UHGV virus genome: UHGV-0246749
Strand: one strand, 5' to 3'
Source: a virus
DNA length: 19,123 nucleotides
Shown here: piece after piece, positions 12,001 through 15,000 of the stretch
Layout of the letters: every line of letters starts with the position of its first letter
Numbering within the stretch: position 1 is the first letter of the stretch
Program-made: the position numbers

Positions 12001-15000
12001 TGGAACCGTTTATGGCTGCTTTTTATCGGGTTATGGAGGAAGCAGAACCGCGAGGGACTCGCTGGTATCACCCGAAAATGGGGTTATTTCAGGTTATTGG
12101 TTGGCAGCGATGAAAAAAAGCCGGGAGTAACCCGGCTCACTCAACATCAATAACGGGGAGCTGTTTCGCATAAAACGGCTCCGAAACATCCAAGAACAGT
12201 TCTAAAGATATCAGCAGCTATATGATCATTTCAAGACCAAATATTGATTCTGCAATTCCGGGACGTTACACTGCTCAGGCACCTTATAAAGCGGGTGCCG
12301 GGCGTGGAAACCCGAAATTCAATATAGAGCACAACCGCGCTCATGCGGTTTTTTCGTGTCATGAGCATCGTTACGCCCAAATTATGGTGGGGCGTGCAGG
12401 GCCAACTTCGGTTGGGCCGGGTTCTATGTTGACCGGTATTTCCACCCCTGTACGTCTCACCACCTATATGGTCGTGGAAAGCCTTGGTGGTGAGTTCATT
12501 GAATTCAACATAGGGGCTGTCACCATGACTACTCTCCCAACCCAATCTCACCCTGAAATCACGATTATCAATGGTCGCGTTGTCACCACATCTCTTGCAG
12601 TAGCTAATTACTTTACTAAACGGCATGAGCGGGTTTTAGATAGAATTAGAAACCTCGAATGTTCCGCTGAATTTACTGAACACAATTTTGTGTTAAGTGA
12701 ATACACCGACGCATCAGGCCGCAAACTACCTTGCTATCAAATCACCCGCGATGGCTTCGCGTTCCTTGCCATGGGCTTCACTGGTAAACGTGCTGCCCGG
12801 TTCAAAGAGGCATACATCAACGCCTTTAACCTGATGGAGAAGAGTTTATCAGGTGCCGATGCGTCTGATATGTCAGCTGTCGCACGAAACGCCAGAGGCG
12901 TATACCTGCATTTGCGTGAAATCCATCAAATCTGGACAAGCCAGCTTTATCCAATGCTTAAGGCCGTTGAATCTCCGCTGGCTAGCAAACTGTACGACCG
13001 TGTTGGTGATGCTGTTTTTGGCGCTGCACTTGTTGATTCCAGGCTGAATGGTTCTGACAAGGAGGTTCGCCCATGATTAGTTACGAAATCATCATCTCCA
13101 CTACGGAATACAGAAACGATGTATCAGTTCGCACGGATGTATCTGTCTGGCACCGTCGCTATAAATCCAGAAAAACAGCGGAACTGAAAGCGGCAGAGAT
13201 GTGTGAAACCATCTCAATGAAAGGTAGCCCGGTTAAATACGTAACTACGGTGGAGGTGCGTCCATGATCCGCCACATCGTTAATTCCCTGTATCACCGAT
13301 ACAACCGTTGCCCCCGTGTGGGGCAGTGGTTCGCCACCAGCAACGGTCACGTTCTGCGGGTTTGCCTAGTCAACGCTGAAAGCCAGAAAGTCGTGTGCGA
13401 ACTACAGGGGCGTAGCTACACCATCAGTTACCCTCTGGCGGTATTTCTGTCTGGAAAAATGTTTAAGCGTCTGGGAGGTGTGGCGTGAACTGTTTTCAGT
13501 TTGTGTGCGGATGTGCTTTCGATAACCCGATTCAGCGCCTGATTATGTTGCGTGTTTTGATGTCGGGTTCTTCAGACGGTGAAGGCGAGAGAGTTATTGA
13601 TCATCAGGTGCTTGCTGATTTCTGCTGTTGTTCTAAGCAAGCGATATTCAGGGAAACCCTGGCACTGGAAAGAGCTGGTTATCTTCATATCCGAAAAATT
13701 GCAACGCTTACTATTGATGCAAAAGCCAGACTACAACCTGCGCGTGGCTACACAATTCTCATGCCGCGGAAGGAGGTTGTATGAGCCGTTACGCCCCCAC
13801 ACCGGAAGTTATGGCTATTGGTCAAATTAATATTTCCGGCAATGTTACACCTGCGAACTGGTGGAAATATATTCGACTACCCAGTGGGCGTCCGGATGCG
13901 ACGGCTATCGCTCTGCTTTCAGAGATCGTTTACTGGTACCGCCCGACAGAGGTCAGGGATGAGCACACCGGAGCGTTGCTGGGATATCGCAAGCGTTTTC
14001 AGGGCGACAAACTGCAAAGAAGCTACCAGGCGTTTGCTGAGCAGTTTGGTTTCGGGAAAAGGGAAACCGCAGATGCGCTGAAGCGTCTGCGCGATGCAGG
14101 GTTTATTACTCTGGATTTACGCACGGTGGAAATGCTCGATGGGGTGAAATGCAGCAATATTTTGTTTGTCGGGATCAACCCACAGGCAATTGCGGCCATC
14201 ACCACACCTTCTTCTGTTTCGCCAGAAAGTAACAGCAATAATGCAATCAGCGATACAGCTATTACGTTAAAACGGAACACCCCCCGACGTCATAACGGAA
14301 CAGGGGATACGCCGAATGTTGATACAAATACAGAGATTACTACAGAGATTACAACGGAGACTAAAAACACTATTGATGCATCCGCTGACGCGTCTGCGCC
14401 AGCGCGTTCTGCCCGACAGGAATATTCATCGGAATTTGAACAGGCCTGGCAGGAATATCCCAAACGTGCTGGTGGCAATTCCAAGTCAGCAGCCTTCAAA
14501 GCCTGGAAAGCCCGTATCAGGGAGGGAATAAAACCGGAGACCATGCTTGATGGCGTGAAGCGGTATGCCGCCTGGGTACGTGCTACAGGAAATACCGGCA
14601 CACAGTTCGTGAAGCAGGCTGCGACGTTCTTTGGACCCGATCGTCACTTCGAAGATTACTGGCAACAGCCAGCCGCTCACGGAGGTGGGCGACAGCGACA
14701 GGTCGATGTCCTGGCTGGCCTGGGAGCCATGTCTGACAAATTCGGTAAATCCAGTAACAAATTGACATTCTGAGGTGACAGCGATGATGACGATTGACCA
14801 ACGTGAGAAACAAACAAGACTACAGGCGCGAATGGATGAGTTACGGGCAGAAATGGATGAGTTACGGGCAGAGATTGCATTTGCTCAGAAGGGCGAAAAG
14901 CCATGGCCTTATCGTTCCTGCCTGATGCGTGAAGGTCGCGGATATTGCGAAAAACACGGTAAATATCGTACGCATATACTGGTGTGGATCGATCGTAATG

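Follow-up and report, generated by a model that had tools for sequence, protein, structure and literature searches.

Citron and Schuster reportedly showed in 1990 that the c4 antisense RNA of the P1/P7 immI region controls icd-ant1/2. The loop sequences of this RNA set immunity specificity in P1 and P7, and in P1 a message kept from translation is, in addition, subject to termination by Rho. In phage P4, the CI RNA acts mainly through premature transcription termination of the replication operon (PMC4825925). Ravin et al. are said to have described in 1999 the control of antA-C by the immA CA RNA of the phage-plasmid N15, where a small processed leader RNA controls the antirepressor operon of a temperate enterobacterial phage. 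As summarized in PMC5320573, RNase P releases c4 of P1 by cleavage at a GGW motif, and the b' segment of this RNA blocks the ribosome-binding site. In Gifsy-1, transcripts from PisrK either terminate, giving a short IsrK RNA, or read through into a long RNA that is translationally silent; short IsrK provided in trans lifts anrP translation more than 100-fold, which needs orf45 translation, and a processed RNA, STnc1160, is known (PMC4825925). In this study, a stretch of 19,123 nucleotides (nt) from UHGV virus genome UHGV-0246749 (the window; the strand given is called plus) was analyzed. A 411-nt non-coding island separates the genes Rha-1 (11406-12113, plus strand) and Rha-2 (12525-13076, plus strand), and its plus strand at 12244-12524 is very probably a processed antisense RNA immunity cassette of the P1/P7/P4/Gifsy-1 type that gates Rha-2. 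The element is a well-known kind of phage RNA switch, of which the window holds another example.

Direct support at this locus comes from family membership, the fold, the co-variation of six pairing sites, and the overlap of one of these, b2, with a Shine-Dalgarno sequence. A search of the island against Rfam returned isrK and C4, both above threshold. The IsrK small RNA (sRNA) and operon leader occupies 12279-12355 of the plus strand (RF01394; 61.6 bits versus a gathering threshold of 50). The first base of the match lies 7 nt downstream of a promoter read from the sequence, TTGATT-17-TACACT (12244-12272, plus strand), which corresponds to PisrK or Pc4. This promoter matches 8 of 12 consensus positions and was consequently not listed by the consensus scan; it had been proposed in an earlier reading made without database searches (the sequence-only reading), and it is nearly invariant across 60 distinct related modules. 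No cI-operator-like repeats were found near it or near the promoter on the opposite strand. IsrK consists of three hairpins, the last of which is an intrinsic terminator that was also found by a scan. Hairpin 1 spans 12279-12298, hairpin 2 spans 12299-12314 and carries the a1 site GUGGAAA (12304-12310) in its loop, the b1 site lies at 12319-12330, and the terminator is formed by 12333-12350 plus a U/T-run. The hairpins (GCACC/GGTGC and CGGG/CCCG) and short terminator previously listed for a plus-strand unit are thus the three IsrK helices, and that unit is the approximately 77-nt IsrK.

The c4 antisense RNA follows at 12380-12467 on the plus strand, as a full-length match to RF01695 with 82.4 bits versus a threshold of 45 (RF01695 and RF03163 are the Rfam families of P1/P7 c4). 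A UUCG hairpin at 12401-12420 had been noticed, but its identity as helix 2 of c4 had been missed. Beyond it lie the c4 loop b', GUUCUAUGUUGA (12421-12432), which is complementary to b1 and b2, and the segment a', UUUCCAC (12439-12445), which is complementary to a1 and a2. A GGU at 12386 and a CCACC at 12460-12464 match the annotated ends of P1 c4 (3344-3420). From these ends, a mature c4 of about 79 nt (12386-12464) is predicted, and the GGU and CCACC make the sequence compatible with excision by RNase P to an RNA of the 77-nt class.

Both target sites of c4 lie in the Rha-2 leader. The a2 site, GUGGAAA (12474-12480, plus strand), is a perfect complement of a', and b2, UCAACAUAGGG (12505-12515, plus strand), is an 11-nt complement of b'. 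The latter overlaps the Rha-2 Shine-Dalgarno sequence AGGGG (12512-12516), and the Rha-2 ATG at 12525 stands 10 nt after b2. The complementarities of a' and b' to a1/b1 and a2/b2 occur in the order known from P1. The sequence-only reading overlooked the principal regulator, c4, with its sites a2 and b2 over the ribosome-binding site of Rha-2. It did describe a 9-base-pair (bp) stem just before Rha-2, which proved real: GGUGGUGAG (12486-12494, plus strand) pairs with CUCACCACC (12456-12464), and the resulting hairpin puts a2 in its loop. The 5' arm of this stem is also the 3' strand of the c4 closing helix. Formation of the stem is limited to the precursor RNA from which c4 has yet to be cut.

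The cassette is widespread. It was found in 117 phage records, among them many Stx-converting phages, ST64B, and mEp460; of 5426 complete Escherichia coli genomes, 1211 carry it. Both isrK and C4 score above gathering in the relatives L002-L004. For comparison, loci were fetched via homologues of Rha-1, and these hold 27 distinct c4 and 28 distinct IsrK sequences. At least 14 combinations of a' and b' occur in related E. coli prophages, and in each of them a1, a2, b1, and b2 carry the matching complement; a2 changes together with a' in every specificity type, and the Shine-Dalgarno sequence is overlaid by b2 in each variant. The c4 fold, a long closing stem around two hairpins, was tested on 19 distinct variants: 99.8% of the cells are paired and eight pairs are changed on both sides, versus 31-48% paired in slid (register-shifted) controls. 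The 9-bp stem is likewise kept with covariation in every subtype.

Several further features of the cassette were observed in E. coli prophages. In the loci L005-L087, the specificity alleles are combinatorial: the 14 or more combinations draw on at least six a1 and at least nine b1 alleles. Helix 2 of c4 in these loci has UUCG, GAAA, or GCAA as its tetraloop, with covariation of the stem. Tandem double isrK-c4 cassettes with differing a/b specificities are present in L087 (2140, 2796), L018, L019, L033, L045, L061, and L063; the first precedes a cargo gene of about 120 amino acids (aa) annotated as "ash family protein," and the second precedes the Rha gene. Within Rha-1 itself there is a perfect 12-bp palindrome, CAATTTCCACAG/CTGTGGAAATTG (11529-11553), which holds GTGGAAA and its complement. 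It was considered as a c4-linked site and rejected: it is found in Rha-1 genes beside cassettes of every a' type, and it is probably unrelated to c4.

The sequence-only reading had explained the island differently, as two independent divergent sRNAs: a minus-strand RNA resembling the lambda antisense RNA oop and lowering Rha-1, and a plus-strand terminator/antiterminator leader that switches by means of a 7-bp alternative helix (12339-12345/12360-12366). All the motifs that it listed were found where it had placed them, and the plus unit is indeed a terminated sRNA as well as a leader (PMC4825925). The 7-bp helix also exists, but it is kept only in the terminator subtype of the window and ST64B, and elsewhere shrinks to 4-5 nt, a chance level. 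Moreover, it cannot pre-empt the terminator, because it lies downstream of it; the proposed competition is therefore not upheld, and the helix is treated as incidental. The model of two sRNAs also lacks c4, the regulator of Rha-2, and as a whole we consider it unlikely, with the minus-strand part of the evidence given below.

The likeness to P1 extends over the whole cassette. In both, a promoter (Pc4 in P1), a1, b1, a terminator-like hairpin, c4 with b' and a', a2, b2, and the controlled gene follow in this order with similar spacing, and the c4 fold, the GGU 5' end, the CCACC 3' end, and the position of b2 at the ribosome-binding site are shared. An equivalent of the 9-bp stem with eight of nine pairs can be seen by eye in P1. 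The P1 sequence reaches the gathering score for C4 and for the c4-a1b1 family, and its leader reaches only 35 bits for isrK (threshold 50). IsrK is thus the homologue of the P1 c4 leader, which scores as a sub-threshold isrK and holds the terminator-like hairpin. The differences concern cargo, coupling, and location. P1 has an icd open reading frame (ORF) and Ant1 as its cargo, whereas in the window b2 covers the cargo gene's own Shine-Dalgarno sequence and that gene encodes a Rha-family protein of 183 aa with no relation to Ant1. P1 keeps its cassette at a separate immI locus, and the window has it inside a lambdoid PR operon, with no repressor operator seen at its promoter. The leader frame of P1 stops at codon 15, whereas that of the window is open into the cargo gene.

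Like the window, Gifsy-1 has an IsrK match that exceeds the Rfam threshold and, behind it, a C4-family RNA, with the cargo Shine-Dalgarno sequence within b2; in both, an AUG inside c4 opens a frame through a2 and b2. The C4 match in Gifsy-1 falls at the position of STnc1160. We observed that the "orf45/STnc1160" segment between isrK and anrP (L196 34131-34214) is a full C4-family RNA with 69 bits; the 2016 paper on Gifsy-1 by Hershko-Shalev et al. had compared it only with P4 CI/seqA (PMC4825925). The two loci differ in that the orf45 stop overlaps the anrP ATG (ATGA coupling), whereas the window frame enters Rha-2 without a stop; in that the Gifsy-1 cassette lies downstream of the Q-like antQ, and the window cassette between Rha-1 and the replication genes; and in the cargo, since AnrP and Rha-2 are dissimilar. 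The architecture is otherwise the same, and IsrK of the window would have a dual role, as a terminated sRNA and as the leader of a read-through mRNA; this duality and Hfq binding have been shown for IsrK of Gifsy-1 (PMC4825925). Of the two functions the sequence-only reading had offered for the plus unit, a trans-acting sRNA or a leader, both would then hold, as they do in Gifsy-1 (PMC4825925). In P4, the leader scores 60.8 bits as isrK and the CI RNA 74.9 bits as C4. P4 and the window are alike in that the regulator is processed from the leader of its own target operon (the seqA/seqC system), and differ in their cargo genes. Evidently, the RNA cassette can be placed ahead of cargo genes of different kinds.

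By analogy with these homologues, which are the source for processing, the translational block, activation by IsrK, and the function of Rha-2, the following mechanism is proposed. The operator-less promoter at 12244-12272 would fire in the lysogen, and most transcripts would end at the IsrK terminator, giving the 77-nt IsrK. Read-through RNA would carry c4, which RNase P would cut at the GGU at 12386 and whose 3' end would be trimmed after CCACC. Segments b' and a' of c4 would then pair with b2 and a2 in the Rha-2 leader and, because b2 covers the Shine-Dalgarno sequence, Rha-2 would stay untranslated. The decoy copies a1 and b1 in IsrK would titrate c4 or refold the long transcript, turning Rha-2 on. 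Either the ratio of IsrK to c4 or read-through from PR after induction would release Rha-2, a probable antirepressor or lytic regulator. The a/b loop sequences would act as a specificity bar-code and so produce heteroimmunity between prophages.

The cargo assignment is based on position and family labels. Rha-2 carries a Phage_pRha N-terminal domain (1.8e-30) and matches PHROG 821 and 995 as well as the anti-repressor families 373 and 63, the labels of the PHROG matches being "transcriptional regulator" and "anti-repressor"; it is probably an antirepressor or lytic regulator. Rha-1 gave weak, sub-threshold matches to Phage_pRha and helix-turn-helix (HTH) models and a match to PHROG 63, "anti-repressor Ant" (7e-45). 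Some results weigh against a cassette of the P1/Gifsy-1 type. The Rfam c4-a1b1 model stays below threshold at this locus (23.6 versus 46.7 bits), and BLASTP shows Rha-2 to be similar to neither of two proven antirepressors, Ant1 of P1 and AnrP of Gifsy-1. In addition, no icd-like ORF is present between b2 and the cargo gene, unlike in P1. An antirepressor cargo expressed through a coupled icd, the hallmark of a P1-type immI, was not found, and the locus is accordingly an immI-like variant in cargo and coupling. Lastly, the leader has retained an open frame, a feature not expected if the leader acted purely as RNA.

Public records stretch the cargo gene upstream across the RNA genes, as a 284-aa PGAP call, as the 385-aa sb41 of ST64B, and as "ash family protein" calls. 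Pfam Phage_ASH (PF10554) matches the leader translation in the Rha-2 frame above threshold (12267-12557; 33.7-65 bits), and the PHROG 821 and 995 profiles include the leader-derived N-terminal extension. A 2022 survey of Stx phages described the Ash domain of Rha/Ash proteins as one without known function (PMC8951638). Region 12222-13076 could be read as a single 284-aa "Ash-Rha" protein with the island as its N-terminal Ash domain; the long ORF is called by PGAP, as sb41, and in several Stx-phage records, and Phage_ASH covers residues 16-112. The frame itself is well kept. From the transcription start to the ATG, the Rha-2 frame is free of stops throughout 49 distinct modules: none of its 349 distinct codon alleles is a stop, versus 19 of 355 and 13 of 351 in the other two frames, and all leader indels are multiples of 3. 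An AUG inside c4 (12384) is always 138 or 141 nt upstream of the cargo ATG and in frame with it.

The pattern of substitution tells against such a protein. The variable sites of the leader fall evenly over the three codon positions (50, 51, and 49 of 82), with no third-position bias. Because codon periodicity is absent at the variable sites, the leader encodes no conserved protein, and the "Ash domain" therefore appears to be an RNA module read as protein rather than a conserved protein domain. The conserved promoter and the transcription start lie inside the supposed ORF, the conservation is accounted for by two Rfam families with covariation, and the ATG at 12222 has no Shine-Dalgarno sequence. 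In P4, the Phage_ASH match (L195 8168-8584) falls on an ORF formerly called "cI protein," now obsolete, that overlies the CI RNA; the true P4 Ash/epsilon derepression protein belongs to another family, PF25738. The 284-aa protein is thus very unlikely, and a shorter form of 230 aa from the c4-internal AUG at 12384, like Gifsy-1 orf45, is possible. The earlier statement that the island has no credible ORF stands as far as codon periodicity is concerned, but it did not foresee that the Rha-2 frame is free of stops in 49 modules. It seems that translation through a2 and b2 matters in this clade, and an extended Rha-2 isoform is possibly made.

The part of the island next to Rha-1 holds a second unit, on the minus strand (12113-12234). 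A sigma-70-like promoter, TTGAAA-18-TGnTATCTT (12234-12205, minus strand; 9 of 12 consensus positions plus an extended -10 TG), is followed by a candidate RNA of about 85 nt (12198-12113, minus strand; 5' end predicted) that was recognized from its fold and conservation and ends in a terminator, GAGCCGGG-UUACU-CCCGGCUU plus U7 (12138-12113, minus strand; 12138-12118 plus the U-run in the scan), with the arms GAGCCGGG/CCCGGCTT. Promoter and terminator, both already named in the sequence-only reading, were found independently by consensus scan. The last base of the U-tract is shared with the Rha-1 TGA (12111-12113), where the final U of the tract stands opposite the A of the stop codon as its complement. 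The minus RNA of about 86 nt folds with -28 kcal/mol (z = -3.2), and none of 200 shuffles folds as well.

Three diverged versions of the unit, the sequence types A, B, and C, share the features described and are about 80% identical to one another. The TTGAAA -35, the 18-nt spacer length, and TGnTAT(C/T)TT are kept in all three, whereas the spacers differ at about half of their positions. An invariant GUUCUUGGAU lies close to the predicted 5' end. A two-part central hairpin is built from different sequence in each type: GGAGC.GUUUU/GAAAC.GCUCC in type A, GGC/CUGC...GCAG/GCC in type B, and GGC/ACUUC...GAAGU/GCC in type C. All of them also end in the GCCGGG/CCCGGC terminator, whose U7-8 tract reaches the stop codon. 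These folds were judged type by type, since the MAFFT alignment, with its indels, was not structure-aware and the RNAalifold output was uninformative. In a pattern scan of IMG/VR, 91 of 91 copies sit between a Rha-1-type gene and the c4 promoter. The unit belongs with the Rha-1 side of the mosaic and is lacking in ST64B. We give about an even chance to the prediction that 12113-12234 makes a terminated RNA of about 85 nt from a lineage-restricted unit divergent from the c4 promoter.

Against this stand the following results. Distant Rha-1 homologues (Yersinia, Providencia, Proteus, Atlantibacter, and others) have no minus unit and are followed by coupled downstream genes instead. Copies within each type are near-identical, which leaves the covariation of the minus unit resting on three lineages, and two variants of type A keep G.U-compatible pairing on the plus strand alone. 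Nothing scored above shuffles when trans targets of the minus RNA were sought within the window, save its cis plus-strand complement. In separate searches, no Rfam family was assigned to the unit; permissive thresholds gave sub-threshold, terminator-driven matches to sroD (24.5/50), PrrF, SorX, and SorY. No mapped sRNA at this position was found in the literature on enterohemorrhagic E. coli (EHEC) Hfq-CRAC, StxS, HnrS, and Salmonella prophage transcriptomes or in one review; STnc1310 of ST64B was looked for and not located. It is possible, if rather doubtful, that there is no functional RNA gene at all, and that the hairpins act in the plus-strand PR transcript, as a 3' stabilizer or RNase III site after Rha-1, or are a neutral remnant of the junction beside incidental promoter hexamers. 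The restriction of the unit to one genomic context in one phage lineage would agree with this, as would type A, which folds equally on both strands and includes the two variants that pair on plus only. However, the U7-8 tract lies on the minus strand only, so that the hairpin cannot terminate plus transcripts; divergence of the spacer has left the -35, TG, and -10 intact; and in types B and C the minus-strand RNA folds better by 4-15 kcal/mol. In L064, a C>T change in the terminator is compatible with pairing, as G.U, only when the minus strand is folded.

If a minus RNA is made, its likeness to oop is one of position. Both are short terminated minus-strand RNAs, encoded where the gene in the cII position gives way to the replication genes and antisense to what PR transcribes, and the conserved minus promoter and terminator at this equivalent of the cII/O junction are what speaks for the model of two sRNAs. 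However, oop is established experimentally and overlaps the cII coding sequence by 55 nt, whereas the minus unit is predicted from sequence and overlaps the stop codon of Rha-1 only. The similarity to oop is confined to the terminator, and 73 of 500 shuffles score as high. The claim of an oop-like regulator of Rha-1 is therefore a weak one. Over its full length, the predicted RNA would be complementary to the read-through transcript from PR in the interval that separates Rha-1 from the cassette, and our best guess is that it acts by cis-antisense cleavage of, or interference with, that transcript. The leader might be bifunctional: the stop-free frame from the AUG at 12384 or from further upstream would lead into Rha-2, serving ribosome transit through a2 and b2 or a 230-aa isoform in the manner of orf45 coupling and P1 Ant1/Ant2, and in addition the minus RNA would be a new oop-analogous cis-antisense that cuts or impedes PR transcripts before the antirepressor and replication genes. 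We put this forward tentatively, as a possibility on the improbable side.

The immunity cassette belongs to an E. coli prophage. A query of 12100-12540 (441 nt) matches an E. coli chromosome segment at 100% identity, and a lambdoid prophage is integrated at that site beside yecN and a DUF72 gene. The early region comprises a cI-type repressor with an S24 peptidase domain (10414-11145, minus strand), an ORF in the cro position (11182-11409), and Rha-1, a Roi/Rha-like HTH protein in the cII position and the upstream neighbor of the island. Downstream of Rha-2, the regulated cargo gene, three small ORFs are followed by replication-initiator, DnaC-like, and DnaB-like genes and the Q-type antiterminator QuuD. 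The isrK-c4 cassette is a mosaic unit, and homology to ST64B starts exactly at the -35 of the plus promoter. Operator-like repeats, GATAC..GTATC/TTGATACT, occur on both sides of the cI gene (10315-10400 and 11090-11165) and are presumably OL and OR; no operator-like repeats of this type were found inside the island. The left part of the window (~1-3400, about 3.4 kb) is chromosomal, with torZ, cmoB, cmoA, yecN, and the DUF72 gene, and the prophage integrase follows at 3430-4743. The identical RefSeq genome flags the small ORF at 13264-13488 as frameshifted and shows an internal stop in the DUF968 gene. QuuD and then an OmpC-like porin gene follow; the segments ~17390-18380 and ~18390-18780 were noted in this right-hand part of the window.

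The minus-strand unit and the stop-free leader are modest leads, and the rest of the island is of a known kind. A new phage sRNA may be encoded by the conserved unit on the minus strand, which makes it a candidate worth noting. The misleading long "Rha/Ash family protein" ORFs of E. coli and Stx phages, together with the Ash domain (PMC8951638), can be mapped to an RNA switch that is understood experimentally. The Gifsy-1 counterpart of this switch controls prophage induction, and the same type of cassette is present in many Stx-converting phages, in which induction governs toxin release. From the many a/b bar-codes it can be predicted between which prophages of one host cross-regulation of antirepressors is possible.

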